Part shown: piece after piece, positions 2,654-50,766 of the stretch | How positions within the stretch are numbered: position 1 is the first letter of the stretch | Layout of the letters: each line of letters begins with the position of its first letter | Notes under the pieces: generated by a model | What the model was told of the DNA's origin: nothing | Seen by the model: the letters and a program-made list of their open reading frames with translations, nothing else | Database searches by the model: none | Translations under genes and position numbers: made by a program | NCBI GenBank assembly: GCA_030610885.1 | Contig: JAUWQW010000001.1 | Span: 5,317 to 69,316 of the forward strand | Reading direction: 5' to 3' | Source of the DNA: Candidatus Aminicenantes bacterium | GTDB taxonomy: Bacteria > Acidobacteriota > Aminicenantia > UBA2199 | Length of the DNA stretch: 64,000 bases

Positions 2654-3346
2654 TTAAATCTTATTGATTTTTTCTAGGATAGATTCGGCTTTTCCAGAAT
2701 AGGGACTGAACATTTTGGAGAGATTATTAAATAATTTTATTGCTTCTTTCTTTTTATTTAACCTTAAAAGAGCAATTCCTTTATAATATATTGCTTCATC
2801 ATAATAAGAAGGATTAGCATTTTTTATGATTAAATTAAAAATTTTTATGGCATTTTTATATTGATCATTTAATAGATAACAGATTCCTTTGAAAAACAGT
2901 ACTTTAGGGTTATTATCAATGAATTTAATTTGGTTTAGAGTATGAAGGGACTTACTAAACTTTGTGTTATTGTAATAAATCATTGCTTGAGAAAATAACT
3001 CATTACCTGATTGGTTTCTGGTTTCACTCTCTATATACACGGGAGGTGTGAAATATGAAATTTTCAATAATATATGTTTCTGATTAGATTCTTTAATTAT
3101 AAAAATAGATGATATTAGTATTATTAAAAAAGATGAGAATATTAGTAATGGTTTAAAAACCAATCTTGGTTTTTTGCCTCTTAAGACAATTTTAACCCTT
3201 TTTTTATTTAATTTTTCATTTAATTTTAATTCAAGGTAACATTTATCACATTCAAAATAATGCTTTTCAAATTTTTCTTTTTCTTTTTCACATAGTTCTT
3301 CTCTCAAGTAACTATCAATAAGAATTGAGAATTTCTTACACTCCAT
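2654..3346 (-). CDS. anti-sigma factor, zf-HC2 zinc-finger N-terminus, one TM helix, periplasmic TPR domain
   Basis: From the internal Met the protein starts MECKKFSILIDSYLREELCEKEKEKFEKHYFECDKC. HYFECDKC is the H-x3-C-x2-C motif of zf-HC2 anti-sigma factors. A hydrophobic TM segment follows (LLIFSSFLIILISSIFII), then TPR-like repeats (AIYYKGIALLRLNKKKEAIKLFNNL). The start ATG at 3344-3346 overlaps the sigma gene stop (3336-3338) by 11 nt. The track ORF extends to 3394. Confidence 0.7.
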   Translation of the reverse strand: MECKKFSILIDSYLREELCEKEKEKFEKHYFECDKCYLELKLNEKLNKKRVKIVLRGKKPRLVFKPLLIFSSFLIILISSIFIIKESNQKHILLKISYFTPPVYIESETRNQSGNELFSQAMIYYNNTKFSKSLHTLNQIKFIDNNPKVLFFKGICYLLNDQYKNAIKIFNLIIKNANPSYYDEAIYYKGIALLRLNKKKEAIKLFNNLSKMFSPYSGKAESILEKINKI

Positions 3347-3926
3347 TTTTTCTTCTCCATATACTATATAGATCTTTTTGTTTAAAAATCTCATTTTTTA
3401 TTTTTTTTAATGCCCTTATCTTTCTAACACTAATATAATGCTTTGATTTACCTAACAATTCTGCGATTTCATCAATTTTATTTTCTTTTAGATAGAATTC
3501 CTTTAAAATTATTTTATCGAGTTCAGAGAGTTTGTTGACAAACTTATTTATTATTTGAGTCATATTTTCTGATTCGAGTCTCTCGTTCTCTTTCAAATTA
3601 TAAGATAATTCAATTGTTTGACTGAATTTTTTTTGGATGTTTATATTTTTCTTTTTTTTATAGAAATAATTGTACAAGACTCTTTTTGAAATCCCGAAGA
3701 TATATGGAGCTATATATTTATCATCAATAATTTTGTTATTCTCAATTCCATTAAAAAAAGCAGCGAAAACTTCCTGGACAAGATCTTCGTGAGAGTTTTC
3801 TCCTTTTACCCTGCATCTAAAATATGAAAAAATTCTAGAATTAAATCTATTTATTAGTTCAACCTGAATATTTTTTTCCTTATTTTTTAATCTTTCAATG
3901 CAACTTTTATTTTTTGTCATTGTCAC
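3336..3926 (-). CDS. RNA polymerase sigma-70 factor, ECF subfamily
   Basis: Region 2 (HEDLVQEVFAAFFNGIENNKII..YIAPYIFGISKRVLYNYF) and region 4 helix-turn-helix (FYLKENKIDEIAELLGKSKHYISVRKIRALKKIK) are present. Size is 196 aa. It sits directly upstream of, and overlapping, a zf-HC2 anti-sigma gene. Confidence 0.8.
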   Translation of the reverse strand: MTMTKNKSCIERLKNKEKNIQVELINRFNSRIFSYFRCRVKGENSHEDLVQEVFAAFFNGIENNKIIDDKYIAPYIFGISKRVLYNYFYKKKKNINIQKKFSQTIELSYNLKENERLESENMTQIINKFVNKLSELDKIILKEFYLKENKIDEIAELLGKSKHYISVRKIRALKKIKNEIFKQKDLYSIWRRKNGV

Positions 3927-4315
3927 ATAAAATTTTTCTCCATAGAATTATTTATATAATTTGATTCAGGAATGGTTTTTTCTCTATTTATCTCTACTTT
4001 TATATTTAGGCTGGGTTGAGCTCTGAAGTTTGTTTTAAAAAAGATTGTAGAATTGTTTGTAAAAAGTTTTTTGTCTATATATTTCAATTTATATTCCGCT
4101 CTTTTTAATTTATTAATATATATTGTTAGAAAGATAATTTCATTTAATTCTGGCTTGATTTGAAAGTTAAAATTTGAGTTATTATTAATTTTTATATAAA
4201 TGAATTTATCTATATGTACCAGAATGTCAGTGACTTTAAAATCTGGAAGGTTATTAGAGAAAATTCCTATTGTAATACTTCCAATTAAAATTAAAAAAAT
4301 TATTATTCTTTTCAT
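3923..4315 (-). CDS. hypothetical exported protein, first gene of the sigma/anti-sigma operon
   Basis: 130 aa with an N-terminal signal/TM segment (MKRIIIFLILIGSITIGIF). Its stop overlaps the sigma-factor ATG (ATGA at 3923-3926), which indicates translational coupling. Confidence 0.45.
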   Translation of the reverse strand: MKRIIIFLILIGSITIGIFSNNLPDFKVTDILVHIDKFIYIKINNNSNFNFQIKPELNEIIFLTIYINKLKRAEYKLKYIDKKLFTNNSTIFFKTNFRAQPSLNIKVEINREKTIPESNYINNSMEKNFM

Positions 4316-4399
4316 AATATTTATATATATGTTTTTATCTAAAATTTCAATATTTTAATGAGTTGAATTCTTTTTTTTTTTAGTTTAAAATTACAATAA

Positions 4400-6082
4400 A
4401 TGAGATTTGGGAGAATGTTTTTCTTATTATTTTTTTTCTTTTCTATTATTTTAAGTGGAATAAGCATAGATCAGAATAGTTTAGAGAAAAATGTAAAAGA
4501 ATCAAATAAATATTTTTCTGATACAAATGATAGCAGATATTACTATATTTCTGAAAGAATAGAAAATATTTTTTCAAGCATTATAAGATATTTTCTTTAT
4601 TTATATGATAAAACTTGTAATAAGATATTTATAGATAAAGCTCTTTATTTTAGTGAGATAAAAAAAATATATATATATAATTTAAATTCCAAAAAAAATA
4701 AAATAGATTTACTTTTTAATATAAATATTAATATAAATAAAAATGGAAAGGAATATTTTTTAATAAATAATAAATATTTGAAAAATTTATTAAGTTTAAA
4801 TTTTAGTAAAGACAAAATTAGCTTTTTTGAAAATAAACTAAATTCGTTGAATAAGGAATATTTAGAATTGATGAAACTTATTTCAGATATTCCAATTACA
4901 CTAAGATTCAAAGATTTTAATACAAAACTAATTCAAAAAAGGATGAATCCAGGTCAGTTGATAATAAAATATACTGTTTTAAAAGAAGATGTTTTTGCTT
5001 TTTATATTACTAATAAATCTATAGGTTATATTAAGCCAAAAGTTAAATATAATCAAATTTTCAAGAAAATAAAGGATCTAACTGAACCTCTTGATGATTT
5101 TAAGAGTGGTAATGTTGATTATTTAAGAATTAACTATAACCTAAACATTGCAAATTATCTATACAATATACTTCTAAGGCAAGTATTAAAAAATCACAAA
5201 AATATGGAAGAGATTTTTATCATTCCAGAGAAGGAATTATTTAAACTGCCCTTTGAAGCCCTGGTAACAGGTTTTAATGATAAAGATTTAGATCCTGAAA
5301 TTATATTCTCAGAATATAGATCTGCTAACTACTTAATACAAAAATTTACAATTTCATATTATTTTTCTCTTTTTGATATTCAAAAAAGGTTCAAAGAAAA
5401 ATACAGGAAGAAATATATTGTTACTGCATTTGGAAATCCAGTAATTGAGGATAGGCTGAGAGAAAAATCAGAGAGTATGCTAATAAATTTTAAATACTTT
5501 AACAAGATTCCCTCTTCAAGAAGAGAAATACTTGATATAAAAAGAATATTTGTTGGAAAAGAGTGTAAAATTTTTTTGGATAAAGAATTTAATAAGAGAA
5601 ATTTTGAAAGTTATGCGTCTGAGTCAAAAATAGTGCATATAGCTACACATTTCATAAATAATATTGATTTTCCTAAATATTCAGCCTTGCTCTTTTCATC
5701 AAAAGATAATAATACGCCTTTTTATTATACTTATGAAATATCTGAGTTAAAATTGAATTCTGCATTGGTGATACTAAGTGCTTGTGAAAGTTTGGAAAAG
5801 GATATACTTGGTTTAAACGGATTAAACAGTATAAGTTTTTCATTCAAAAATTCAGGTGTTAAATCTGTTATAGTGAGTATGTGGCCAGTTGATGAGTTTA
5901 GTTCAAAGTTAGTACCATTGTTTTACGAAAATTATAAAAGAGCAAAAAAATTTTCTTTAGCATTAAGGAATGCTAAACTTAAGTTAATGAAAAAAAATAT
6001 AAAATTTAAAGAAGATATAAAAATTTCACTTTCTCATCCTTTTATATGGGCAAATTATATTCTTTACAATTTTTATTTTTAA
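4400..6082 (+). CDS. secreted CHAT-domain (caspase-like, clan CD) protease
   Basis: N-terminal signal peptide (MRFGRMFFLLFFFFSIILSGIS), then an N/K/I-rich low-complexity N-terminal half. The C-terminal approximately 350 aa have the CHAT pattern: IFIIPEKELFKLPFEAL, YIVTAFGNP, IVHIATHF (catalytic His), LSACES (catalytic Cys), GVKSVIVSMWPVDEFSSKLVPLFYEN. Confidence 0.7.
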   Translation: MRFGRMFFLLFFFFSIILSGISIDQNSLEKNVKESNKYFSDTNDSRYYYISERIENIFSSIIRYFLYLYDKTCNKIFIDKALYFSEIKKIYIYNLNSKKNKIDLLFNINININKNGKEYFLINNKYLKNLLSLNFSKDKISFFENKLNSLNKEYLELMKLISDIPITLRFKDFNTKLIQKRMNPGQLIIKYTVLKEDVFAFYITNKSIGYIKPKVKYNQIFKKIKDLTEPLDDFKSGNVDYLRINYNLNIANYLYNILLRQVLKNHKNMEEIFIIPEKELFKLPFEALVTGFNDKDLDPEIIFSEYRSANYLIQKFTISYYFSLFDIQKRFKEKYRKKYIVTAFGNPVIEDRLREKSESMLINFKYFNKIPSSRREILDIKRIFVGKECKIFLDKEFNKRNFESYASESKIVHIATHFINNIDFPKYSALLFSSKDNNTPFYYTYEISELKLNSALVILSACESLEKDILGLNGLNSISFSFKNSGVKSVIVSMWPVDEFSSKLVPLFYENYKRAKKFSLALRNAKLKLMKKNIKFKEDIKISLSHPFIWANYILYNFYF

Positions 6083-6144
6083 TTAATAAAATTGAGATTT
6101 TTTTTATTTTCTTTTATTTAATATATTAGTAAGGGAGGTGTTAA

Positions 6145-8481
6145 ATGAAAAAATTTTTTCTACTATTTTTTATTTTCTTTTTATTTTTAAATCTACAATC
6201 AACAGATATAAATATTAATCCGAATCAGATTTTTGTTGGAACTAATGTTCAATTTGATTTTATTCATTCTAATATAAGTTCAATATTAAACCCTGAATGG
6301 AATTTCGGAGATAATAGCCCTAAAGCAAATGGTATATCAACAAATCATTTTTATAAAGAACCTGGCAACTATACTGTAAAATTTACCTGGTCTGAAGAGG
6401 GTGAGAATAAGGAAATCACAAAAAATATAGTAGTAGGTGATAATAGAGAAGTATCAATTGAGGGGAGTGATTTTTTTGTTGGAAGAGTTATACAGTTTAA
6501 GACAAAAAATTTTGCTAGAAGTAATTTGAAGTGGGATTTTGGTGATAGTACAATTGAAAATGCCGAGAAAAATCATAAACATAAATTTCAAAATCCAGGG
6601 AATTATACAATCAAGGTTTATGATTTTGGAGGAAATACATCTTTTGCAGTAACCTGTAATGCGAATATTCAACCAGATACCAGGAGGGTTGATATCAATC
6701 CTTCAAATGTTGTAGTAGGACAGACTGTAACAATAAAATTGATAAATTCTATGGCTACAGATGTGGAATGGAACCTTGATATGGATGTTATATTGAAGAA
6801 TTCTCCCACTATAATACAGTATAAATTTCTAGATCCTGGGAAATATGAGATTATTTGTATGATACCCAATCAGACCCCAGTAAAAAATGTTATAAATGTA
6901 AGAGAAAATAGAAGCATTGATTTAACTCAGAAATATGTGTTTGAGGGTTCAAATGTTAAATTTAGAACAAAAAATTTTAATTCTTCTAACCTGAAATGGA
7001 ATTTTGGTGATGGTACTATACAAAGTGGAGGGCAAAATGTTTCCCATATGTTTTTAAGACCAGGAAATTATTTTGTGAAAGTCTTTGATTTTGATGGAAA
7101 ATCAAAGAAGCCTGTTCAAAAGAGATTAAATGTGTTAAGAGAGAACAGAAAAATTGATTTAAAGTACCAGGTTTTGTATATAAGTTCAGAGGTTGAGATA
7201 AGAGCAAAGGATTTTAAAAGCAGTTCAATTAAATGGGATTTTGGTGATAGCAGTACACGAATGGGAAGCAACTTGATCAAGCATATTTATAAAAGAATCG
7301 GGACTTTTACAATAAAGGCAATTGATATGGGAGGTAAAGACACAAAAGAAATAATAAGACAGGTCAATGTTATTAATGATAATAGAATAATTCAATTACC
7401 TGTAGAGATAATTGCAGGTGAACCTGTTGATTTGCAACTACAGAATGCAGAAATGGGTAATTTTATATGGGAATTTAGAGATAATGAGAAAAGATCTGGA
7501 AACTTTGTGAAATCTAAAAATTTCAAATTTCCCGGTTTTCAGACAATAAAAATTGTTGATAAATCTGGTAAATATCCTGACCTTATAAAAAAGATAGATG
7601 TAAAACCAGATAAAAGAAAGCTAAAAAGTTTAATAGATTACAGCCTCCCAAATGAGACAATAAACTTTGAAGCTTTTAATTTTAAGGGGCCTGGAATTAA
7701 ATGGGATTTTGGTGATGGGACAATAAAAGAAAATGGAAATAGAAATGAAAAGCATAAGTACAGATCAATTGGGAAATATAAGGTTAAAGCAATTGATTTC
7801 AATGGTAAGAGTGCTAAGGTTTTTTCAAAAGATATATATATTAGTGAATTGTTACCTGACTTTCAGGTAAAAAGTATAGAAATTGTATTTGACAATGGGA
7901 AATATTATAGAGTAGTCCCGAAAAGAAATATGCCACCTGATTATAGTGTTAAAATAAAAGCAAAGGGAAGAGGAATAATAAAGGGTAAATGGATTCTTGA
8001 TGGTATGACTGTCGGGCTTTTTGAAATAAAGTTGAAAGAGAACCAGATAAATGTTATAAAAGGGAGAAATGTCCCAAAATTGCCTGTTATTGATTTAGGT
8101 GTCCATAATTATACTTTTGATTTTACAAATTATTCATTTAATGGGGAAATACCTAGATTAAGATATTTTGTGACTGAATCAGGAATGCTTCAAATTAAAA
8201 ACCCATTGCCTGGAGCAAAAATTCCTGAGCAAAAAACAATAAAATTAAAGTGGTCATCAGTAAAAAGGAAAGTATCCTATGAAATTGTTGTCTCTAAAAT
8301 TCCTTTTCAATTCCTGAAAGACGAACAGATTAAGTGGATTAAGCTTGAGCAAAAAAAAGAATTCAATCTTGATTTATTAAAGTATAAAAAAAATACATGG
8401 ATTTATTGGATGGTAAGAGCAGTTAATGAAAATGGTAAAGTGGTTACTACTTCTGAGCCTTCATCATTTAAAATTTTGTGA
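6145..8481 (+). CDS. secreted multi-PKD-domain protein (approximately 7 PKD repeats) with a conserved C-terminal module
   Basis: Signal peptide MKKFFLLFFIFFLFLNLQS. A Shine-Dalgarno sequence AAGGGAGG lies 7 nt upstream. There are about seven 80-88-aa repeats, each with the PKD signature W(D/N)FGDG(S/T) (WNFGDNSP, WDFGDSTIE, WNFGDGTIQ, WDFGDSSTR, WDFGDGTIKE and two degenerate copies). The C-terminal region (DNGKYYRVVPK..GIIKGKWILDG..LPVIDLGVHNY..WIYWMVRAVNENG) is shared with the gene at 10511. Confidence 0.75.
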   Translation: MKKFFLLFFIFFLFLNLQSTDININPNQIFVGTNVQFDFIHSNISSILNPEWNFGDNSPKANGISTNHFYKEPGNYTVKFTWSEEGENKEITKNIVVGDNREVSIEGSDFFVGRVIQFKTKNFARSNLKWDFGDSTIENAEKNHKHKFQNPGNYTIKVYDFGGNTSFAVTCNANIQPDTRRVDINPSNVVVGQTVTIKLINSMATDVEWNLDMDVILKNSPTIIQYKFLDPGKYEIICMIPNQTPVKNVINVRENRSIDLTQKYVFEGSNVKFRTKNFNSSNLKWNFGDGTIQSGGQNVSHMFLRPGNYFVKVFDFDGKSKKPVQKRLNVLRENRKIDLKYQVLYISSEVEIRAKDFKSSSIKWDFGDSSTRMGSNLIKHIYKRIGTFTIKAIDMGGKDTKEIIRQVNVINDNRIIQLPVEIIAGEPVDLQLQNAEMGNFIWEFRDNEKRSGNFVKSKNFKFPGFQTIKIVDKSGKYPDLIKKIDVKPDKRKLKSLIDYSLPNETINFEAFNFKGPGIKWDFGDGTIKENGNRNEKHKYRSIGKYKVKAIDFNGKSAKVFSKDIYISELLPDFQVKSIEIVFDNGKYYRVVPKRNMPPDYSVKIKAKGRGIIKGKWILDGMTVGLFEIKLKENQINVIKGRNVPKLPVIDLGVHNYTFDFTNYSFNGEIPRLRYFVTESGMLQIKNPLPGAKIPEQKTIKLKWSSVKRKVSYEIVVSKIPFQFLKDEQIKWIKLEQKKEFNLDLLKYKKNTWIYWMVRAVNENGKVVTTSEPSSFKIL

Positions 8482-8573
8482 AATGTTGAATTCAAACTTA
8501 AATAAAAAAGTTATTTTAAAATTATGTTGAAAATTTTTATATATAATATAATTATATGATTAAGGGGGAAAAT

Positions 8574-10502
8574 ATGAGGAAAATCGTTTCTGTCTTTATA
8601 TTTATTTTTTTATTTATTAATTCTTCTGTTTTGTTTTCAAAATCATTTTCACATTCAAATTATCTACCAAAAATAATAAAATCTTCTAATAAGTTAGTTA
8701 TAGAAATAGATATTTTAAGCAACAATGGGGATTTTTTTATATATTATAAAACTGAAGGGTTAAAAAATTATCAGATTAGAAAAATGAAGAATGATAAAAA
8801 TGGAAAGGTTTATTATCAATTATCCTTAAAATACCTTTATGGTAAAGGTATTGAATATTTTATTGTTAATAATGGGAATAAAGATTCAAATTCTATTTCA
8901 CCTGTTTTTACTTTCCATAATTTCACAACAAAAGAATCCCCTGAGGTTTACTTTACAAGTGAAGACTCGCAATCTACAACTTCTTCAAAGAAAAGAGAAC
9001 CTCTTTTGAAATTTCAAGGCTCATTGTCAACCGCTTCCCGTTTACATGATACTTCAGATTACCCGGGAGAGAAATTCTCTGCCAATGCCAATATGAGAGT
9101 TTATAAAAATATTAATTCAGAAAAATATCAATTTGATTTTGATTCTAACTTTACTTATATGAACCATGTTTCAGATAAAGAGAAAAAAATAAATCTTACA
9201 AGCATGATGATCAGATATAAAAGGGGAAGCCATAAAATTGAGGCTGGTGATGTTAATGTGTCATCAAACAATCAATTGGCAATGGCTGGAATTAATAAAA
9301 GAGGCTTAAATTACGAATTTAAAAGTAAGAATTTTTATTTAAATTCATTTTATACAAATTCTCAGCAGAAAACAGGGTTCGATGGCTTTGGAATCCCTTC
9401 TTCTAATGCAAGTCTTTTTGGAACAACAATTGGATTTGATATTGGTAAGACTTACAATGAAATCATTAAAATAAGGGGATTATTTTTAACAGGAAAAGAT
9501 GATCTTGATAGTAAAACAGTGGTCTCTTCGGAAGAACCCTTTAGAACAGGAAATATGTATTCTTTTTGGGGTGAGTTAAGTCCTTTTAAGAGTTATTTGA
9601 AAATATTTGGAGAGTATGCTCACTGTAATTTTGGTAAAGGACTTGATAAAGAGAGTTTAAATAAAGAGAAAGATAATGCATGGAGAGCTGGGGGTAATTT
9701 TAATTATAAAGTATTGTCTGCCAGTGTAAATTATAATAAAATCGGCAGTAAGTTTAATTCTATTGCAAATCTATTTATGCAAAATGATAGAGAGGGTTTA
9801 AGCAGTAATGTTATGTTAAATATAAAAACATTTTCCTGCAGTCTAAATTATGTAGATCAAAAAAGTTATATGGAAAGCCCGGTCCAGCCTGAGCTACATT
9901 CAAAAAATTTGATGGCAAATTTCAACTGGTTAATTGCAAATCACATAAAAATAGGAGCAGAATATGGAAAAGATAATCTAGATTATGATGAATCTACAGG
10001 ATTACAGACTGGTGGAAGTGATATGGACACATTAAAGTATGGAGCAACTCTTGGATATATTGCAGGTTCTAATGGAATAAATGTAAGGATCGGTAAAACC
10101 GAGTCTAAAACCTTTACTTCCAATATTGATGCATCTGTTTCTATTAACCTGAGGCTTGGAAAATTTCTGAGTTTTAACCCCACATTCTCATATCAAAATA
10201 CAAAAAATTTAGCTGACAACAGTACTTCTAAAATTTATAATATCTATTTAAATTCGGAACTCAGCTTTATTCCTCAATTATTCACATTATCAATTTCAGG
10301 TTCTTATAATAAAAATAAAAGCACTTCTAATGAATCAGAATCTCTTACTGCAAATGGAAATTTTAATTTTTATATGGCAAAAATATTTAAGAATAAGATC
10401 CAGCCTATACTGTCTATTAGAGCAAAGTATCAGGAAACAAAATATGGAGGTACTAAGACAGACAGTGTGGCTTTATATCTACATTTTGATCTTTCATTTT
10501 AG
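8574..10502 (+). CDS. outer-membrane beta-barrel protein (predicted)
   Basis: Signal peptide MRKIVSVFIFIFLFINSSVLFS, with a Shine-Dalgarno sequence AAGGGGGAA 4 nt upstream of ATG 8574. The protein is long, with alternating amphipathic stretches, and ends in ...LHFDLSF with a C-terminal Phe, which is typical of beta-barrel outer-membrane proteins. It lies 8 nt upstream of the second PKD gene. The track ORF starts at 8556. Confidence 0.5.
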   Translation: MRKIVSVFIFIFLFINSSVLFSKSFSHSNYLPKIIKSSNKLVIEIDILSNNGDFFIYYKTEGLKNYQIRKMKNDKNGKVYYQLSLKYLYGKGIEYFIVNNGNKDSNSISPVFTFHNFTTKESPEVYFTSEDSQSTTSSKKREPLLKFQGSLSTASRLHDTSDYPGEKFSANANMRVYKNINSEKYQFDFDSNFTYMNHVSDKEKKINLTSMMIRYKRGSHKIEAGDVNVSSNNQLAMAGINKRGLNYEFKSKNFYLNSFYTNSQQKTGFDGFGIPSSNASLFGTTIGFDIGKTYNEIIKIRGLFLTGKDDLDSKTVVSSEEPFRTGNMYSFWGELSPFKSYLKIFGEYAHCNFGKGLDKESLNKEKDNAWRAGGNFNYKVLSASVNYNKIGSKFNSIANLFMQNDREGLSSNVMLNIKTFSCSLNYVDQKSYMESPVQPELHSKNLMANFNWLIANHIKIGAEYGKDNLDYDESTGLQTGGSDMDTLKYGATLGYIAGSNGINVRIGKTESKTFTSNIDASVSINLRLGKFLSFNPTFSYQNTKNLADNSTSKIYNIYLNSELSFIPQLFTLSISGSYNKNKSTSNESESLTANGNFNFYMAKIFKNKIQPILSIRAKYQETKYGGTKTDSVALYLHFDLSF

Positions 10503-10510
10503 GAGGAACT

Positions 10511-12523
10511 ATGAAAAAGATATTAATTGTATTATGCTTTTCTTTTCTATTTTTAAATTTGTACTCAATAGAAGTAACCCCAACAGCGCCTTATTATGTT
10601 GGGAATATATTAACTTTTAGCCCAACCAATCCAGGTTCATGGAAGGGTAGACCTGTAAGGTGGATTTTTGGAGATGGAAATTCAATGCAGGTAACAGGAA
10701 GTCAAAGTGTAACTCATTATTATAAAAATCCAGGAACATATACTGTAATGTTGGTAGATTTGACTGCTACCACGACTCCAAATCCAACACAAACACGTGT
10801 TATTACAATAGATGAGGATCGAAATATTCAGATCTCAACTTCCCAACCTTATGTTGGTCAACAGATTACTTTTACAGCTATTAATTTTAATACTCCTTCA
10901 GATATTTTTTGGGAAATGGGAGATGGTACTACTTATTCCAATCAAAGCAGTATAATTAATCACACATTTTCAAATGCAGGTACATATATTGTAAAAGCAT
11001 ATGACTGGAATGGAGACACAACAACAACACCTGTAACAATTACTGTAAATGTTACTCAACCTGCTCGTAGTATTCGTATTTATTATACTTCGCAAAGCCC
11101 AAGAGTTGATCAACCAATATGTTTTGAGGCACAAAATTTCATTACATCGAGCATAGACTGGAATTTTGGTGACGGGCATGTTGTATATGGAGGAAGCGTA
11201 AAACAGACACACAGATATCAAAATCCAGGTACTTTTACAGTCACTGCAAAGGAAAATTTAGCAACAGGTCAAGGGCTTATAACTACAAGCATTACAATTT
11301 TGCCAGAAAACAGATATATTACAGTTTCTTCGCCTGAAGTGCGTATAAATGAAGAGGTTGCAATAACTGTATATAATTTTAGAGGAGATTATATATGGTG
11401 GGATTTTGGAGATGGAACACAAAAATCAGGATTACATACAGAAAGATATACTTATAGAAGATCTGGAAATTTTACTATAACAGCTCAGGATGAAAACGGA
11501 GAGAGCCAGAAGAAATTTCAGGTAAATATTATTGTAAGAGGTATTGATGATATTGTTAATATTGGAATAGCAGAGATTAAACTGGATAATGGTAAGTATT
11601 ACAAAGTTATTCCAAAAAATTCTAAAAATATTCGTGCTGTTTTGAGGATGAAAATGAGGGGTACTGGTATTGTATCTGGATATTGGATTGTAGATGGTAA
11701 TCCATATGAGTTTTTTAATGAGGTTGCTCTACAGGGAGAGTTAAAAGAGATTTATACTAAAGATGTCCCGGGACTTCCTGTTTTAGAATCAGGGATACAT
11801 ACAATAACTGTAAAATTAACAAAACCAGTTGAAGTTCCAATAACATTCCCTGTATTAAAATATTTTGTGCTCCCTTATGAAAACAAAGTTGAAATTTTAT
11901 CTCCTGATGATGGATATGTGACAAAAGAAAAAGATATTCCAGAATTTTCATGGAAAGAGCCTAAAGGTGGTTCAAAGTATAAGATTGCCTTTTCAGACTA
12001 TTTGTATCCTATATTATATAACACTAATAGACTGAAATGGATCGATGTTAATGTAAAATTGAATTATAAACCGGAACCTGATGTTTGGAAGGACATTAAA
12101 CGAAACAGATGGACATATTGGAAAGTTAAGGCACTTGATAGTAACGAGAATATAATAGCTGAAAGTGACATTCAGGATATAAAGATTGTAATAGCTTCAG
12201 CAGAGATAAGTATTAGTAAGATTACAGATCTTGATGGAAATGAGATACAAATTAATAAGAATATAAATTCTGACAAAGAGGACATTTTAGTATACGGAAG
12301 TGTTAAATACAAGGGTGATTCAAAATATCTTATACTAAGGGTTTATGCAGATAATGAACTTGTAGATCAGCTTCTTTTTAGAGATGTAAAAAAGAATGAA
12401 GAGAGATTATTTGAAACCTCAATTCCAAATAAAAAGAAAGATACTAAAGTGATATTTCAAGTTCTTAACACATCTTCTCCATCAGTTATTATAGGTATAA
12501 AAAATCTGTTTCTAAAAAAATAG
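10511..12523 (+). CDS. secreted multi-PKD-domain protein (4 PKD repeats), paralog of the gene at 6145
   Basis: Signal peptide MKKILIVLCFSFLFLNLYS. A Shine-Dalgarno sequence AGGAGG lies upstream. PKD signatures are WIFGDGNS, WEMGDGTT, WNFGDGHV and WDFGDGTQ. The C-terminal module (DNGKYYKVIPK..GIVSGYWIVDG..LPVLESGIHT..WTYWKVKALDSNEN) matches the 6145 protein. Confidence 0.75.
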   Translation: MKKILIVLCFSFLFLNLYSIEVTPTAPYYVGNILTFSPTNPGSWKGRPVRWIFGDGNSMQVTGSQSVTHYYKNPGTYTVMLVDLTATTTPNPTQTRVITIDEDRNIQISTSQPYVGQQITFTAINFNTPSDIFWEMGDGTTYSNQSSIINHTFSNAGTYIVKAYDWNGDTTTTPVTITVNVTQPARSIRIYYTSQSPRVDQPICFEAQNFITSSIDWNFGDGHVVYGGSVKQTHRYQNPGTFTVTAKENLATGQGLITTSITILPENRYITVSSPEVRINEEVAITVYNFRGDYIWWDFGDGTQKSGLHTERYTYRRSGNFTITAQDENGESQKKFQVNIIVRGIDDIVNIGIAEIKLDNGKYYKVIPKNSKNIRAVLRMKMRGTGIVSGYWIVDGNPYEFFNEVALQGELKEIYTKDVPGLPVLESGIHTITVKLTKPVEVPITFPVLKYFVLPYENKVEILSPDDGYVTKEKDIPEFSWKEPKGGSKYKIAFSDYLYPILYNTNRLKWIDVNVKLNYKPEPDVWKDIKRNRWTYWKVKALDSNENIIAESDIQDIKIVIASAEISISKITDLDGNEIQINKNINSDKEDILVYGSVKYKGDSKYLILRVYADNELVDQLLFRDVKKNEERLFETSIPNKKKDTKVIFQVLNTSSPSVIIGIKNLFLKK

Positions 12524-15894: not shown

Positions 15895-16374
15895 TTACTT
15901 GATTATTGGAATGTCAATTATTTTTAATTTTACATTAAGAGTTGCTTTAATTTTGCCTTTTGAGTTTCTAAAAACTAAAATGAATGGATTGTTTTTGTTT
16001 AAACAAGGTTCTATAAAACTAATATTCTTATGATAAGGTATAGAATTGAATTTAATACTATAAGGTTGATTGGAAGATGGCATGTATGTTGGAGTAAATG
16101 TTCCTAAATTGGCAATTATCTTCCCCATCTGATGTAATTCAATAATAACCTTTTCATTAATTCCTGAACCTTCTAACACTTTTTTGATTTCAATCATTTC
16201 AAATTCTGCAAAACAGGGTTGGTTCATTATTTTTATGTTTTTTAGAGTTTTTACTGCATTTAATTTTTCCCATGAAGATTTAATTTGGAGCCTTTCAGGT
16301 TCTCTTAAAATATTAGAGAATAGGGTTAGTACAAAAAAAATAAATAAAAAAATTATAGCAATCTTTTTTCTCAT
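15895..16374 (-). CDS. hypothetical exported protein
   Basis: 159 aa with an N-terminal signal/TM segment (MRKKIAIIFLFIFFVLTLFS). I recognise no domain. Confidence 0.4.
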   Translation of the reverse strand: MRKKIAIIFLFIFFVLTLFSNILREPERLQIKSSWEKLNAVKTLKNIKIMNQPCFAEFEMIEIKKVLEGSGINEKVIIELHQMGKIIANLGTFTPTYMPSSNQPYSIKFNSIPYHKNISFIEPCLNKNNPFILVFRNSKGKIKATLNVKLKIIDIPIIK

Positions 16375-16482
16375 TCTTTATTCCTTTCTTTATATTAAAT
16401 ATAATTTATACTGAAAAAATCTCATTTTTTTTCAACTTCTTTGCAAAAAAAAAACAGATAATATTGAAGAAATTGACTTATA

Positions 16483-42548: not shown

Positions 42549-42585
42549 TTTCGTATAACTTTAAGATTATAAATAAGGAGTGCTT

Positions 42586-44727
42586 ATGAAAAAAAATTTT
42601 ATTATTTTATTTATATTATTTAGCCTTACTCTATTTGTTTTTGGAGAGGAAGGAATGTGGCAGTTAAATCAGCTAAAAGGATTAAATCTGCAAAAAAAAG
42701 GCTTGAAAATTGATATTTCAGAAATCTATAGTCCGGACAAACCCTGCATTGCAGATGCTATTGTTTTACTTGGAGGGGGGACTTCTGAATTAATCTCTTC
42801 TGATGGACTCATATTAACAAATCACCATGTGGCTTTTGGAGCTGTTCAACGTGCATCTATAAAAGGAACAGATTTTGTTACGAAGGGATTTCTTGCTAAG
42901 TCCTATAAAGATGAAATTGAAGCTCTTGGATATACGGCAAGTATTCTCCAGAAAATGGAAGATGTCACAAATCAATTTGTTAAGTTTAAGAGAATAAAGG
43001 ATCTTGTTAAACGTAAAAAGGAAATAGAAAGGAAGATAAAAAAGATAACTGATAAAATTGAGAAGGGTAAAGATGATATAAGAGCAACAATTGCAAGAAT
43101 GTATGAGGGTAAACAGTATATTTTGTTTGTGCACAAACGTTTTGATGATATTCGTGTTGTTTATGTACCACCTAAGGCAATTGGAAATTATGGAGGAGAT
43201 ATTGATAATTGGATGTGGCCACGTCATACAGGTGATTTTTCTTTTTTGAGGATTTATATGGCTCCTGATGGGTCAGGTAGAAAGTATAACAAGGAAAATG
43301 TACCATATAAACCGAAATATTGGCTAAAAATAGCAAAAGATAATTTAAAAGATGGAGATTTTACTTTTATTATGGGATACCCTGGAAGGACCAGCCGATA
43401 TAGAACATCTTATTCAGTTGATGAAAATTTAAACCATGTATACCCAACCAGGATTAAATTATATAAAGAGCTTATTGATTTGTTAGAGAAATATGGTAAG
43501 GATTCAATGATTGCAAAGATGAAGGTGTCAGGATTCATTAAGGGATTGAATAATGGTATGAAGAATTATCAGGGTAAAATTGAAGATATGAACCGTATAA
43601 ATTATTTGCAGAAGAAAATAGAACAGGAAAAGAAATTCATGGCTTTTTTGAATGAGAACAAGAAATTGAAGAAAAAGTATGGAAAAGCTCTTGAAAAAAT
43701 AAAAGTGCTTTATGAAATAAATAAAAAGACCAGAGATCATGATGAATTATTCTCCATGTTTGGCTTTTTAGGCGGTACAGTTCCTGGAATGGGTATTCAG
43801 ATATATAATACTGCAAGAGAGAGAGAGAAACCAAAGAAATTGCGTGACCCGAGATTTTCTGAAAAGGATATAAAGAGAGCTGTTTCACGTCTTCAATTTA
43901 GATTTATGTCTTTTTATGAACCTTCAGATAAGGCTTTTTTAAATAAAACTTTGAAAATGGCTTCCAAGCTCCCGGAAAGTTCACGAATTAAGGGCTTAGA
44001 TTATATTTTAAAGAATAAAACTAAGGCAATAGAGCAGTTTGTAGATAAGTCATACAAGAATACCAAACTTAAAGATGTGAAATATGTAAAGTCTCTTTTC
44101 AATAAGACTGTAAAAGAATTAGAAGCATTGGATGATCCTTTTATAAATATGGGCAAGAGCCTTTATGCTGAGAAAGAGGAGCTTCGTAAACGTAATGAGA
44201 AATTTAATGCAAATATAACTGAATTAAGAAAACAATACATCTCAGCACTTTCAAAATGGAAAGGTGAGACTATTTATTCTGATGCAAACAGAACCATTCG
44301 TTTTACATATGGAAATGTTGAAGGCTATAGCCCAAAAGATGCAGTTTACTATGCTCCATTTACAACTTTTAAAGGTATTGTAGAAAAAGATACTGGTAAA
44401 TCCCCATTTGATATGCCCAAGGCTTTAAGGCAACTTTATGAAAAAAAGGATTTTGGAAAATGGAAAGATCCAATTTTGAATGATGTACCTGTAGATTTTC
44501 TTCATAAATGTGATATAACGGGTGGAAATAGCGGAAGTCCTGTTTTAAATGCAAATGGTGAATTGATTGGTATTGCATTTGATGGAAACTGGGAAGCTAT
44601 GAATAGTGATTGGGAATTTAATGAAGCTAAACAGAGAACAATTTCTGTTGATGTGCGTTATGTTATGTTTATTACTGAAAAATTGGGAAAAGCTGATCGC
44701 ATTTTAAAAGAGGTCGGATTAAAATAA
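42586..44727 (+). CDS. S46-family dipeptidyl-peptidase (DPP7/DPP11-like serine peptidase)
   Basis: Signal peptide then GEEGMWQLNQL, the S46 N-terminal hallmark. Catalytic His region TNHHV. C-terminal GGNSGSPVLNANGELIGIAFDGNWE (catalytic Ser). AAGGAG lies 7 nt upstream of ATG 42586. The track starts at GTG 42580. Confidence 0.85.
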   Translation: MKKNFIILFILFSLTLFVFGEEGMWQLNQLKGLNLQKKGLKIDISEIYSPDKPCIADAIVLLGGGTSELISSDGLILTNHHVAFGAVQRASIKGTDFVTKGFLAKSYKDEIEALGYTASILQKMEDVTNQFVKFKRIKDLVKRKKEIERKIKKITDKIEKGKDDIRATIARMYEGKQYILFVHKRFDDIRVVYVPPKAIGNYGGDIDNWMWPRHTGDFSFLRIYMAPDGSGRKYNKENVPYKPKYWLKIAKDNLKDGDFTFIMGYPGRTSRYRTSYSVDENLNHVYPTRIKLYKELIDLLEKYGKDSMIAKMKVSGFIKGLNNGMKNYQGKIEDMNRINYLQKKIEQEKKFMAFLNENKKLKKKYGKALEKIKVLYEINKKTRDHDELFSMFGFLGGTVPGMGIQIYNTAREREKPKKLRDPRFSEKDIKRAVSRLQFRFMSFYEPSDKAFLNKTLKMASKLPESSRIKGLDYILKNKTKAIEQFVDKSYKNTKLKDVKYVKSLFNKTVKELEALDDPFINMGKSLYAEKEELRKRNEKFNANITELRKQYISALSKWKGETIYSDANRTIRFTYGNVEGYSPKDAVYYAPFTTFKGIVEKDTGKSPFDMPKALRQLYEKKDFGKWKDPILNDVPVDFLHKCDITGGNSGSPVLNANGELIGIAFDGNWEAMNSDWEFNEAKQRTISVDVRYVMFITEKLGKADRILKEVGLK

Positions 44728-48125: not shown

Positions 48126-48209
48126 ATTTTTTAAAACATTTCTCTGAAACCCTGTACAATTAATAAATTCGTTTTGCTTTTATGGGAAAAATTTAATAGA
48201 ATTGTAAGT

Positions 48210-49481
48210 ATGAAAAAATTTTCAGTAGATCTTATTGAGGATAATTTTTTTCATGATTTCACTTATGATTCATATAATAGAAAAGAGTATATTTTTAAGA
48301 AAAAAACGGGAATATTAAAAAGAGAATATAATGAAAGCTGGCTTAGCAGTTCTTTTGAGTTAAACTCAATAAATGATGCAAAAGCATATATTTCAAAGGG
48401 TTTTAAATCTTCAAGTTTTAAAAACTTTAAAACCAATAACATTGAGTTTAGCCCAGGTAAAGTGTTAAGAGACAATGAATTTATTTTAAATTTTTTACGA
48501 TCACTTGATTTAAAAGAATGGAAGATCGTATTTAGAGTAAAGGCATTAAACCGCCTTATTATTAACAATAAAAATAAAGGATTGAGAAATGGATTTACAC
48601 ATTATAGTATTATAATAAAATTAAAATTAAATAACTGTAGAAATTACATTGAGATTGGAGAGGGATCAACTGGTAGCTTTAAATTCAATCAAACAGGGCT
48701 TAGCTTGAGAATAAAAGATGTGATTAATAATCATAATAATAAAATAAAAAATGATTTTAAGGATAGAATTCCAGTAATTCTGAACTCAGGTGATGGAGGT
48801 ATAATCTTTCATGAAATCCTTGGGCATTCATTAGAGGTTGATTATATTTATCAAAAGTTGTCTCCAATATCAATATATGATGTGGGACATCAAATAATAT
48901 CAAAAAATGTAAATTTAGTTGCTGATTACGAAGGAGATATGTTTTTCTCAAACAGAATGTGTGATGATGAAGGAGTATCCTCAAAATCTTCTATGTTAGT
49001 TGAGAATGGAATATTAAGGAACTTTATTTCAGACATTTATTATAAAAATCTGTTAAATATAAAAAATTCTGGTTATTCAAGGGTAGAAGATTTTTCAAAA
49101 GTTCCAATGCCGAGAATGTTTGCAATTTACTTAAAACCAGGCCCCTATAATGCTCAAGAGTTAATTGAATCAACAAAATATGGAATATATGCAAAAGAAT
49201 TTGGTGAGGGAAAAACTTATTTTAATAAAAATTCATTTTTCTTTAATATAAAAGAGGCATATTTGATTGAAAATGGTAAACTTACTTCTCCTCTTGGTGA
49301 TGTTATTGTGAAAGGAAATATTATGGAAACCTTAAACTCAGTTGATATGGTAGCTGATGATTTCAGATATGACAAGGGTATCAGTTATTGTTTCAAGAAT
49401 GGCCAGACATTAAATGTCAGGGTTGGTCAACCAACAGTTAAGATAAATAACCTTTTTGTTAAAAGTGGTTTAAATGATTGA
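48210..49481 (+). CDS. tldD: TldD-family metalloprotease
   Basis: TldD/PmbA fold with HExxxH (FHEILGHSLE) and the conserved GxC..DDEG region (MCDDEGVSS). An alternative TTG start lies at 48174. Confidence 0.7.
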   Translation: MKKFSVDLIEDNFFHDFTYDSYNRKEYIFKKKTGILKREYNESWLSSSFELNSINDAKAYISKGFKSSSFKNFKTNNIEFSPGKVLRDNEFILNFLRSLDLKEWKIVFRVKALNRLIINNKNKGLRNGFTHYSIIIKLKLNNCRNYIEIGEGSTGSFKFNQTGLSLRIKDVINNHNNKIKNDFKDRIPVILNSGDGGIIFHEILGHSLEVDYIYQKLSPISIYDVGHQIISKNVNLVADYEGDMFFSNRMCDDEGVSSKSSMLVENGILRNFISDIYYKNLLNIKNSGYSRVEDFSKVPMPRMFAIYLKPGPYNAQELIESTKYGIYAKEFGEGKTYFNKNSFFFNIKEAYLIENGKLTSPLGDVIVKGNIMETLNSVDMVADDFRYDKGISYCFKNGQTLNVRVGQPTVKINNLFVKSGLND

Positions 49482-50766
49482 GAAAATACTCTTACAAGGA
49501 AAAGCTGCCGGGTTTTCAACAGTTGAGGTTTTCCATGAAAAAAGGGAGAAACAGGAATATGAGAAACTTTTAGATTATAATGCTTCTCATTTCGTAAAGA
49601 ATGATAATATATCAGTCAGAGCTTTCTGGGAATTTGGAGAGCCTGTTGGATTTAATTTGTCAAAACCTGATATAAAATCAATTAAAACAGGATTTTCAAG
49701 TGTTTGTTCTTTAAATATTCCAGGAAGAAATAAAAATTATGCATATTTATTACCCTCACATGCTCAAAAAGTAAAGATAAATATTTTTGATGATTCTATA
49801 AAAAGCTTTGATATAAAGAAATTTGATGAGTTAGTAGAAAAGATCAAAGAAATTCTTGTATCTTTTCCAGGGCTTTCTCTAAAAAGAATTAAGTTTTTTA
49901 AAGTGTTAAAGAAATGTTATATTTCAAATACTAAATGGCTTAATGCTAAATATAAAAAAACAAATTTCAACCTGACTATTAATTTTGAATATAAAAATAA
50001 TTCAATTGAAATAAGTGAGAATGAGATCTATTTTAATCGAATAAATCCATTCAGAATGATTTCAAGAGCGTTTAATTTATTAAATTCTCTTACAGATAAT
50101 AATATACATATCAAAAAAGATTGTGCTTTAATATTTTCTCCTGAAGCATCTGTTTTTGTCTTAAGAGAGTTTTCTGATAATTTTTGTTTAAGCTTTGAAG
50201 GGAGTTTAAAAAAAATAAGTTTCCCATCAGTATTAAGTATTATTGAAAATCCTAATCTGGATTATCAGACTGGTTCTGTGCCGTTTGATGATGAAGGCGT
50301 TCAATCAGGAGAAAGATATTTAGTAAATAAGGGTGTTTTTTTGGATCGGATTTCAGATATAAAGAGAGCTTTTTACAACAAAAGAGCTTGTTCTACAGGT
50401 AATGGTTTTAGGAGTGATAAGTCAATATTTCCATTTCCAAGGTTTTCCAACTTTTTCATTAAACCTTCGGTTTTAAGTTTAAATAAATTAATGATGGATG
50501 CAGGAAAAGGTATTCTTGTTTCTTTAATTAAATTAAAAAATATTGAGAATGATGAATGGATGTTTTCTGCATATGGTTACAGGTTTGAAAATGGAGATAT
50601 CAATGAGCCTGTCCATTTTTACTTTAAAACCTCTTTTTTTTCATATTTTCTGAATATATTAAAAGTATCAAAAGAGATAAAATTTTTTAATATAAATTAT
50701 AATATTGGATCTCCATATTTGCTGGTTAATGCAAAGCATTTGTATGAAAGTGTTCTTCAAATTTAA
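49474..50766 (+). CDS. TldE/PmbA-family protein, partner of TldD
   Basis: Second TldD/PmbA-family paralog, lacking HExxxH. Conserved PFDDEGVQS region. It overlaps tldD by 8 nt, the usual TldD/TldE pairing. Confidence 0.6.
   Translation: MIEKILLQGKAAGFSTVEVFHEKREKQEYEKLLDYNASHFVKNDNISVRAFWEFGEPVGFNLSKPDIKSIKTGFSSVCSLNIPGRNKNYAYLLPSHAQKVKINIFDDSIKSFDIKKFDELVEKIKEILVSFPGLSLKRIKFFKVLKKCYISNTKWLNAKYKKTNFNLTINFEYKNNSIEISENEIYFNRINPFRMISRAFNLLNSLTDNNIHIKKDCALIFSPEASVFVLREFSDNFCLSFEGSLKKISFPSVLSIIENPNLDYQTGSVPFDDEGVQSGERYLVNKGVFLDRISDIKRAFYNKRACSTGNGFRSDKSIFPFPRFSNFFIKPSVLSLNKLMMDAGKGILVSLIKLKNIENDEWMFSAYGYRFENGDINEPVHFYFKTSFFSYFLNILKVSKEIKFFNINYNIGSPYLLVNAKHLYESVLQI

Follow-up and report, generated by a model that had tools for sequence, protein, structure and literature searches.

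Among described systems, the closest to the locus reported here is the DdvA/DdvS pair of Myxococcus, in which DdvA unites a zinc anti-sigma domain, a transmembrane (TM) helix and a periplasmic TPR-CHAT region in a single polypeptide; DdvA-like fusions have been reported in Myxococcota and one Comamonas species only (PMC11506125). CHAT and ECF regulation also meet in Craspase of type III-E CRISPR, a cytoplasmic, RNA-guided system comprising the Cas7-11-bound TPR-CHAT protease Csx29, Csx30 and CASP-sigma (PMC10028731). More generally, ECF pathways that work by regulated intramembrane proteolysis include DegS-RseA-RseB-RseP-sigmaE, PrsW/RsiW and Prc with FecR-type anti-sigma factors (PMC10028731, PMC11506125). 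Finally, CHAT, subtilase and carboxypeptidase genes occur near ECF54 sigma factors, for which proteolytic control has been suggested (PMC8999054), and this actinobacterial group has been described as having no anti-sigma factor (PMC7826278).

We analysed a seven-gene locus of an uncultured Aminicenantes bacterium, contained in a window of 64,000 nucleotides (the whole stretch of DNA examined, to which all coordinates refer). Open reading frame checks and profile searches confirmed the genes, domains and spacings described in a previous sequence-only reading, with positions and gaps exact and two starts revised: homolog alignment moved that of the anti-sigma factor to Met17 (window 3346), and the barrel protein probably begins at Met7 (8574; 642 aa), with AGGAG upstream. 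The features are as follows:

2654-3394, minus strand: anti-sigma factor open reading frame (from Met17, 2654..3346, 230 aa)
3014..3061, minus strand: codons of the juxtamembrane motif ISYFTPPVYIESETRN, anti-sigma residues 96-111, between TM helix and TPR domain
3336..3926, minus strand: ECF (group IV) sigma factor, 194-196 aa, overlapping or abutting both adjoining genes
3923..4315, minus strand: small exported protein, 130 aa, signal peptide, first gene of the sigma operon
4363..4391, plus strand: CHAT promoter of sigma-70 type, TTGAAT-N17-TAAAAT, ending 8 nt before the ATG (window scan)
4400..6082, plus strand: exported CHAT protease, 560 aa
6094..6120, plus strand: promoter-like GAGATT-N15-TATTTA in the CHAT-PKD spacer
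6145..8481, plus strand: PKD protein A, 778 aa, signal peptide
8527..8555, plus strand: sigma-70-like TTGAAA-N17-AATTAT before the barrel gene (window scan)
8556..10502, plus strand: outer-membrane barrel protein, 648 aa open reading frame, signal peptide
10511..12523, plus strand: PKD protein B, 670 aa, signal peptide

Gaps of 84 nt (small protein to CHAT), 62 nt (CHAT to PKD A), 74 nt (PKD A to barrel) and 8 nt (barrel to PKD B) separate the genes. The earlier domain calls (CHAT, PKD, zf-HC2, sigma factor) all hold in profile searches, with Sigma70_r2 just under its cut-off. Pfam and NCBIfam profiles place the sigma factor (196 aa) in the ECF (group IV) sigma-70 family, with matches to TIGR02937 sigma70-ECF (61.2 bits, cut-off 42.9), Sigma70_r4 (residues 131-177, 25.8 bits, cut-off 24.1) and Sigma70_r2 (residues 24-92, 23.5 bits, slightly below the cut-off of 24). 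Its predicted cognate partner is encoded by the zf-HC2 gene overlapping its 3' end, and the pair is kept across all related loci. The anti-sigma factor consists of an N-terminal CHCC zinc-binding domain (zf-HC2, 23.2 bits, cut-off 22.2), a single TM helix (about residues 66-84) and, on the periplasmic side, a TPR domain (TPR_2, 34.5 bits; TPR_6 also matches); Cys3 and His29-x3-Cys33-x2-Cys36, invariant across 17 aligned anti-sigma sequences, mark it as a ZAS protein. The small exported protein shows conserved PDF, KRAEYK, KTNFR and PESxxxNN motifs in 25 loci and possibly adopts a CARDB-like Ig fold, judging from sub-threshold CARDB matches (E 0.05-0.12). It is missing in some type II loci (L015, L038, L043), and its gene occurs in sigma operons without an adjoining CHAT gene (L050, L051, L055, L057, L062).

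The CHAT protein comprises a signal peptide, a helical N-terminal region and a CHAT domain at residues 250-556 (PF12770, 150 bits, cut-off 24, E 1.2e-43), with a predicted fold nearest to Csx29, separase and DdvA. Its predicted catalytic dyad, His417 (5648-5650) and Cys462 (5783-5785), is invariant in 58 of 58 aligned homologs, distant members included, and Sec-type signal peptides are found throughout the family, again including the distant operons. By these features the protein looks catalytically competent and extracytoplasmic; the substrate preference of CHAT proteases is not known to be predictable from sequence, which weighs against naming a target for it. A quite unlikely alternative is that CHAT acts without proteolysis, as a periplasmic sensor or partner switch whose helical/TPR part binds the TPR domain of the anti-sigma factor and alters its conformation or makes it more or less susceptible to a different site-1 protease. 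TPR or helical repeats in both proteins would suit such an arrangement, as would the captured resting state of the DdvA CHAT domain, in which the active site is incomplete and for which cleavage is undemonstrated (PMC11506125), but the invariant dyad argues that catalysis is retained in this family.

The sigma/anti-sigma/CHAT trio looks like a two-protein version of DdvA, the only known CHAT-bearing anti-sigma factor. Here, however, the 230-aa anti-sigma factor and the 560-aa CHAT protein, which has a signal peptide of its own, are separate and divergently transcribed, and the module further includes a PKD-barrel-PKD cassette as well as the small exported protein. A DdvA-type fusion can be rejected, as the anti-sigma factor stops after its TPR domain and none of its 65 homologs, all of 228-249 aa, is fused to CHAT (PF12770). 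A profile search of the PDB came back empty, with no detectable sequence similarity to DdvA. The split form occurs in Aminicenantes and in metagenomic contigs of unassigned origin. The statement in the sequence-only reading that no described envelope system of this composition was known thus stands in part: DdvA is a fused precedent for the trio (PMC11506125), whereas the PKD-barrel-PKD part appears to have no previous description.

In contrast to Craspase, CHAT is exported and no cas genes accompany it, and the Csx30 of Craspase does not belong to the ZAS/TM anti-sigma factors. PADLOC detected no defence genes among the seven module proteins, giving only weak, sub-threshold CasR-like matches on the sigma factor, and no Cas7-11/gRAMP, Csx30 or Csx31; together with the export signal of CHAT, this rejects Craspase membership. 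Among the remaining large ORFs of the window, 29 were annotated with Pfam and showed housekeeping genes only, so that control of a CBASS/CRISPR-Cas island, a DdvA feature, is likewise rejected. FecA-FecR-FecI cell-surface signalling was discarded as well, with Pfam and NCBIfam finding no TonB_dep_Rec, Plug, STN or FecR domain in any of the seven proteins. The module resembles ECF54 in having a CHAT-domain gene in a conserved ECF sigma neighbourhood, but its canonical ZAS anti-sigma factor sets it apart from ECF54 as that group is described.

To what extent the trio belongs together can be judged from its distribution. Seen from the CHAT side, 30 loci, each from a different GTDB species, were informative, and in 29 of them genes for an ECF sigma factor and a zf-HC2/TPR anti-sigma factor adjoin. 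From the anti-sigma side, the close family has a divergent CHAT gene in 10 of 15 informative metagenomic loci, and the distant family forms co-directional ECF, anti-sigma and TPR-CHAT operons in 19 of 24 metagenomic loci. All type I loci share a single conserved core-genome syntenic block beside genes of fatty-acid synthesis and type IV pili, so their count overstates independent support. The linkage is not obligatory: CHAT occurs without an adjoining sigma module (L004, L007, L039), the sigma/anti-sigma operon has no adjoining CHAT gene in 5 of the 15 close-family loci (L055, L057, L061, L062, L116), and protein look-ups found the sigma operon with no CHAT alongside at L050 and L051. The identical genes flanking all type I loci, and the separability of the trio in some genomes, would be compatible with coincidental adjacency, or with synteny kept through shared ancestry without functional coupling. 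We regard this explanation as extremely improbable, because the trio appears in three gene orders, the convergent one in Ignavibacteriaceae-type and other contigs (L045, L047, L048), and type II loci occupy at least four distinct genomic contexts. Moreover, the trio recurs across families with 20-25% identity in anti-sigma and CHAT alike, including FCB-type metagenomic contigs (L045, L047, L048). The earlier proposal that the sigma/anti-sigma pair and CHAT belong together is therefore upheld.

By contrast, the earlier placement of CHAT under presumptive ECF control finds no support in its promoter. TTG(C/A)A(A/T)-N16/17-TA(T/A)AAT precedes CHAT in 21 of 23 loci (0.38 expected in shuffles), at 8 nt from the ATG or, in two loci, 7 nt; the gene has no Shine-Dalgarno sequence and its mRNA is essentially leaderless. 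Given this conserved consensus promoter of housekeeping type, CHAT looks like a constitutive input rather than an output of the regulon. The motif ahead of the first PKD gene is another one, GAGATA-N15-TATnTA. The gene content of the proposed four-gene operon is correct, although a single transcript is not assured, in view of the promoter-like elements before the first PKD and barrel genes. The GAGATT-N15-TATTTA element is, tentatively, a candidate ECF-dependent promoter for the PKD-barrel-PKD genes. Of 10 type II loci, 9 have a GAGA(T/C)N element ahead of the first PKD gene (its background is 0.00114 per nt per strand), and in most of them, by eye, a TAT-type -10-like hexamer follows after 15-16 nt. 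The same motif also stands before sigma operons at about 22 type I-like loci, and a window search gave 4 matches against 0.85 expected. The window's own subfamily lacks the motif ahead of the sigma operon, making its assignment to this sigma factor tentative. Before the barrel gene, TTGAAA-N17-AATTAT is a possible, weakly evidenced internal promoter in this AT-rich genome; the PKD A-barrel spacers of other loci contain comparable TTGnnA, T-run and TATATA elements.

These promoter and distribution data bear on whether CHAT might instead be an effector or maturation protease that processes the PKD proteins or further envelope proteins, for instance by trimming them so that they assemble with the barrel, with the ECF/anti-sigma pair merely regulating the neighbourhood. 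In favour of this, the PKD-barrel-PKD genes always follow CHAT in type II loci, even where no sigma module adjoins (L004), conserved Arg residues lie at the PKD repeat boundaries (D/E-N-R-x-I), and CHAT of the distant operons shares a transcript with the sigma factor, alongside which it could be autoregulated. We nonetheless consider an effector role unlikely: most loci, among them type I loci, the soil-metagenome operons and L045, L047 and L048, pair CHAT with sigma/anti-sigma genes and contain no PKD or barrel gene (cassette in 8 of 33 loci), CHAT is served by a conserved promoter of its own, of housekeeping type, and in the fused DdvA the CHAT domain is part of the anti-sigma factor itself (PMC11506125).

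Accordingly, of the two CHAT roles raised in the sequence-only reading, cleavage of the anti-sigma factor is now better supported than PKD processing, given the persistence of the trio without PKD genes in many loci and the conservation of a juxtamembrane Arg motif. In ISYFTPPVYIESETRN, Pro102, Glu108 and Arg110 are invariant in the alignment of the close anti-sigma family, and PPxY-x4-hydrophobic-Arg is retained in most aligned distant relatives (20-25% identity), which are encoded in operons with a TPR-CHAT gene. This conservation makes the motif a candidate CHAT docking or cleavage site; its occurrence in an anti-sigma factor without an adjoining CHAT gene (L050) counts against the cleavage reading.

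The PKD-barrel-PKD cassette is conserved at L004, L011, L015, L018, L035, L038, L041, L043, L052, L069 and L071. PKD protein A (PKD_4, E 5e-45, 151.9 bits, cut-off 27) was said to contain seven PKD repeats; seven of W-x-F-G-D type can be counted by eye, but two are degenerate and Pfam detects five. PKD protein B (PKD_4, E 4.9e-27, 94.2 bits, cut-off 27) has four repeats. The two are paralogous (E 6e-58) and have a C-terminal region of about 210 aa in common, with an additional segment of about 110 aa at the C-terminus of B. The barrel protein is a predicted outer-membrane protein: beyond its signal peptide, the structural model shows an N-terminal beta-sandwich (about residues 30-120), a disordered linker and a closed antiparallel beta-barrel of 26 strands ending in a C-terminal Phe. 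It has no Pfam or NCBIfam match at E up to 0.1, and membership of the MtrB/PioB, usher or TonB-dependent receptor families was rejected, its structural likeness being generic to large barrels. It differs from the barrels of MtrCAB, LptDE and FimD/PapC in belonging to no shared sequence family, in having no haem motifs, plug or usher domains, and in having PKD proteins as partners. The cassette is, in our reading, an Aminicenantes-specific add-on and possibly the output of the module; a sheath or translocon role for the barrel is speculation.

PKD-rich surface proteins and large barrels are frequent phage receptors, and the cassette could accordingly serve as receptor, decoy or shield in a module sensing phages or other surface threats like DdvA/DdvS, a role compatible with the proteolytic mechanism. 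Both characterised CHAT/ECF links belong to defence systems (PMC11506125, PMC10028731). The negative PADLOC result on the seven proteins, the housekeeping content of the remaining window and the core-genome setting of type I loci speak against an anti-phage role, to which we assign a small probability.

Returning to anti-sigma cleavage, we infer all functional steps from the observed or computed gene content, domains, predicted folds, export signals, dyad, linkage and promoter elements. We propose, with slightly less than an even chance of being right, a three-component envelope signalling system to which the cassette is joined, in which CHAT acts on the anti-sigma factor and thereby frees the sigma factor. 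CHAT would be made constitutively from its leaderless housekeeping-type promoter and reside in the periplasm. Upon a signal, its target would be the periplasmic portion of the anti-sigma factor, which it would most likely cut, as a site-1 protease, near PPxY-x4-hydrophobic-Arg, after which intramembrane proteolysis would liberate the sigma factor to activate its targets, the PKD-barrel-PKD genes being candidates through GAGATA-N15-TATnTA. Such a pathway would resemble DegS-RseA-RseB-RseP-sigmaE in its periplasmic site-1 protease, single-pass anti-sigma factor, site-2 protease and sigma release, but its protease is a clan CD CHAT cysteine protease rather than a serine protease or metalloprotease, and the protease gene adjoins that of the presumed substrate. 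The small exported protein, encoded within the sigma operon like RseB although without similarity to it, could modulate the anti-sigma step in the manner of RseB acting on RseA. In a more tentative and rather unlikely extension, the module would represent a widespread new ECF class in which a free periplasmic CHAT protease of the separase/craspase type serves a ZAS-TM-TPR anti-sigma factor as its dedicated site-1 protease, cutting at PPxY-x4-hydrophobic-Arg, and which in Aminicenantes would be joined to a new outer-membrane machine, a 26-strand barrel carrying one of the paralogous PKD proteins on each face, in an MtrCAB-like arrangement.

The sequence-only reading held up as an observation: an ORF check found the seven open reading frames of the module and the gaps of 84, 62, 74 and 8 nt at the coordinates that it had reported, and profile searches upheld each of its domain assignments. 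The features are as follows.

Features of the module in the window

2654-3394, minus strand: anti-sigma factor; zf-HC2 and TPRs in profile searches
3336-3926, minus strand: ECF sigma factor; TIGR02937 at 61.2 bits (cut-off 42.9)
3923-4315, minus strand: small exported protein, 130 aa
4400-6082, plus strand: CHAT protein; PF12770 at 150 bits (E 1.2e-43)
6094-6120, plus strand: GAGATA-type element before the first PKD gene
6145-8481, plus strand: PKD protein A; profile searches
8556-10502, plus strand: barrel protein, 648 aa
10511-12523, plus strand: PKD protein B; profile searches

Alignment with homologs shifts the start of the anti-sigma factor to Met17 (window position 3346, 230 aa), and by the same approach the barrel protein probably starts at Met7 (8574). 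The two PKD proteins are indeed paralogs (E 6e-58), with a non-PKD C-terminal region common to both; PKD protein B has an additional C-terminal domain of ~110 aa (residues ~561-670, window 12191-12523), missing from PKD protein A and without a match to a known family. Searches with curated-family profiles returned no match for the small protein or the barrel protein. For the small protein, a profile search against PDB sequences and Pfam gave CARDB at sub-threshold level only (E 0.05-0.12), and matches to MEF2 and lysyl oxidase were dismissed as spurious. Members of the barrel family carry neither a Pfam domain nor a functional name; in the window protein, an N-terminal beta-sandwich domain (residues ~30-120, window 8640-8915), which matches no known family, precedes a disordered linker.

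Scanning one genome per GTDB species from the CHAT side recovered 37 loci, mostly labeled Aminicenantes or Acidobacteriota, with some other, possibly mistaken labels; among named genomes, the closest CHAT match (81% identity) comes from a Candidatus Aminicenantes MAG. Iterated HMMs built from the window proteins were run against ORFs called in the recovered loci. Anti-sigma and ECF genes adjoin CHAT in 29 of the 30 loci with sufficient upstream DNA, usually along with the small-protein gene, for which counts rest on first-round HMM matches, the iterated HMM having drifted to 125 and been set aside. Type I loci encode a short CHAT protein (~529 aa) without PKD genes, and type II loci (8 of 33 informative ones) encode a TPR-CHAT protein of 800-920 aa followed by PKD-barrel-PKD. 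The window CHAT is nearest to type II (49% identity), with most of the TPR region lost. All type I loci occupy a single syntenic block, flanked by genes for fatty-acid synthesis on one side and the pilMNO-secretin genes on the other, and therefore are not independent evidence; the type II loci lie in at least four different contexts, with the sigma module mostly kept. CHAT genes without an adjacent sigma module were found at three loci (L004, L007 and L039), and these orphans occur with or without the PKD cassette. One type II locus has a 2.2-kb insertion between the barrel gene and the second PKD gene (L015:16935-19178), holding an extra gene (ORF cluster 60) that is also present downstream of the cassette in another locus, L018.

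The reciprocal test was a metagenome scan with the anti-sigma alignment. Within the close anti-sigma family, a divergent CHAT gene is present in 10 of 15 informative loci and absent in 5. Protein look-ups added two loci without CHAT (L050, L051) and one with the full cassette (L052), and sigma operons that bear the small-protein gene without adjacent CHAT comprise L050, L051, L055, L057 and L062. Unexpectedly, a co-directional operon for an ECF sigma factor, a zf-HC2/TPR anti-sigma factor and a TPR-CHAT protein of 900-1290 aa is the arrangement at 19 of 24 informative loci of distantly related anti-sigma factors (20-25% identity), with the domains upheld by Pfam and with signal peptides or lipoboxes in most of the CHAT proteins inspected. 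These three-gene operons, located on metagenome contigs (L080-L130, e.g., L085:9393-14497 and L123:931-5609), appear to be undescribed. A third gene order, with CHAT convergent with or divergent from the genes for an ECF sigma factor and a TM-TPR protein, was found in an Ignavibacteriaceae MAG and two contigs with T9SS cargo genes (L045, L047, L048). On one of these, a contig of unassigned origin with SprB/CHU_C-type genes (L048:336-7860), the TPR-CHAT gene faces a gene string for ECF-like and TM-TPR proteins, two paralogous exported proteins, a papain-like Peptidase_C1 and a 997-aa Peptidase_C14 (caspase-family) protein, which may form a multi-protease envelope cascade. An in-family Rosetta stone search of the anti-sigma family found no CHAT fusions.

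Thus, the trio of ECF sigma, anti-sigma and CHAT genes recurs over several families, gene orders and contexts, as a frequent and not an obligatory association. The sequence-only reading had noted that a linkage conserved nowhere would be coincidental; it proved recurrent, and we consider the trio very likely to be a real functional unit.

A sigma-70 consensus scan over the region found 70 sites versus 66.8 expected and was uninformative at the ~28% GC of this genome; comparative intergenic alignment was needed instead. The architecture of the ~85-nt region between the small-protein and CHAT genes is unchanged from 28% to >60% GC. On the CHAT strand, TTG(C/A)A(A/T), N16/17 and TA(T/A)AAT are present in 21 of 23 loci, compared to an average of 0.38 loci for shuffled sequences; the distance from the -10 hexamer to the CHAT ATG is 8 nt in 19 of the 23 loci and 7 nt in two, without a Shine-Dalgarno sequence. 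Judging from this alignment, CHAT appears to have a consensus housekeeping-type promoter and an essentially leaderless mRNA. The same leaderless layout is seen at window 4316-4399 and in the intergenic regions of L005 and L016-L044. The -35 hexamer of many loci is TTGCAA; this palindrome could be shared by promoters that point in opposite directions, one per strand. In some loci only, an ECF-like element, GCAAC-N16-CGT, overlaps the promoter upstream of CHAT. The conserved housekeeping-type promoter argues against the ECF control of CHAT that had been proposed with such a promoter named as contrary evidence; of that interpretation, the domains and the linkage of the trio stand. We read CHAT instead as an input component that is putatively constitutive.

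A further element, GAGA(T/C)A-N15/16-TAT(N)TA, is non-canonical and has a different distribution. Of 10 type II loci, 9 have GAGA(T/C)N (the first element; background rate 0.00114 per nt per strand) ahead of the first PKD gene, followed in most by a TAT-type hexamer, and it is there in L004, a locus without an adjacent sigma gene. In ~22 type I-like loci, the element also stands before the sigma operon, always at the same distance, and L018 and L041 have it in front of both units. This distribution fits an ECF-dependent promoter; assignment to this particular sigma factor is tentative because neither the sigma operon of the window, with only a degenerate TAGATA, nor those of its subfamily are preceded by the motif. 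This absence also rules the element out as a sign that the window operon regulates itself. It is possible that an unlinked regulator reads the element.

GAGAT-N16/17-TATNTA has two further matches on the minus strand of the window. The match at 3365-3392 lies inside the sigma gene, at its 3' end and shortly before the start of the anti-sigma gene (3346). The match at 16396-16423 is followed after 22 nt by an unannotated ORF of 159 aa (15895-16374), the first in a string of SpoU-methylase, cysS and radical-SAM genes. Both extra matches may be due to chance (4 in the window versus 0.85 expected). A sigma-70-like element precedes the barrel gene, and therefore the four genes described as an operon, the order and gaps of which are as reported, may comprise more than one transcription unit, leaving a single transcript in doubt.

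The rest of the window (~28% GC) consists of ordinary chromosomal genes (purL, cysS, uvrD, smc, ffh, trmD, TolC-like, OmpA-family), which identify the host as a diderm and place the locus outside any obvious mobile island. The window itself belongs to a JGI metagenome contig of 180,703 bp (L053, 100% identity). Its AT-richest part is the CHAT gene region (window 4001-6000; GC 0.22, compared to ~0.27-0.33 elsewhere). Rfam gave no match anywhere in the window, and no tandem repeats were detected in the module region. Across all seven proteins, PADLOC returned two weak CasR-like matches, both on the sigma factor; by this analysis, none of the module proteins belongs to a defense system. A PmbA/TldD metallopeptidase pair (48174-50766) and a Peptidase_S46 (dipeptidyl-peptidase 7-like) gene (42580-44727), unrelated to the module, fit the peptide fermentation by which Aminicenantes are usually said to live; no cultured representative of this phylum is known.

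A literature search for CHAT with ECF or anti-sigma factors yielded three lines of work only: the Myxococcus anti-sigma/ECF sigma pair DdvA/DdvS, craspase and ECF54. In craspase, Csx29 cleaves Csx30, an inhibitor of CASP-sigma (PMC10028731); ECF54 sigma factors, according to a review note, have no anti-sigma factors and have CHAT genes nearby (PMC8999054, PMC7826278). DdvA is, according to its authors, the one characterized anti-sigma factor that bears a TPR-CHAT domain, and DdvA-like fusions are confined to Myxococcota and one Comamonas species; protease and presumed substrate share one polypeptide, self-cleavage is a hypothesis, and the proposed target is the flexible linker that joins the TM helix to TPR-CHAT (PMC11506125). 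The window module has the identical domain inventory and the same proposed mode of action, whereas its domains are split over two proteins and its locus lacks defense genes (PADLOC on the module proteins). The likeness of CHAT to DdvA and Csx29 is at the fold level only, and the CHAT alignment profile had no matches, DdvA included, among PDB sequences; because the fusion test fails, the window locus is not a member of the DdvA family. The literature search found no paper in which Aminicenantes and CHAT appear together, and given this silence and the lack of a Pfam domain or functional name for the barrel, we regard the PKD-barrel-PKD cassette as undescribed.

The anti-sigma factor contains, between its TM helix and its TPR domain, the segment ISYFTPPVYIESETRN, in which the close family shows no variation at Pro102, Glu108 and Arg110. 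Most of the distant relatives aligned share the pattern hydrophobic-x-x-F-(D/E/T)-P-P-x-Y-x4-hydrophobic-R-(G/N/S), and several of them have a long Pro/Ser/Ala-rich linker between motif and membrane. We infer that this juxtamembrane motif is a candidate docking or cleavage site for CHAT. The exported, constitutive CHAT protease would act on the ZAS-TM-TPR anti-sigma factor, and this action would free the ECF sigma factor. A split, DdvA-like regulated-proteolysis system of this kind is the reading of the module with the most support, one that we rate just short of even, and the Aminicenantes-specific PKD-barrel-PKD outer-membrane cassette is its probable output or accessory.

Aminicenantes species loci with the split version number in the dozens, and metagenomic contigs of unassigned origin have it too; this breadth suggests that CHAT-based sigma control is a general solution for envelope signaling and not a myxobacterial oddity. 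With a natural two-protein version, the autoproteolysis hypothesis for DdvA would become a simple question of cleavage in trans. CHAT proteases are best known from the context of cytoplasmic defense, and the module would show exported caspase-like proteases operating beyond it, while bringing to notice a conserved outer-membrane family that consists of a predicted 26-strand barrel and two PKD partners.
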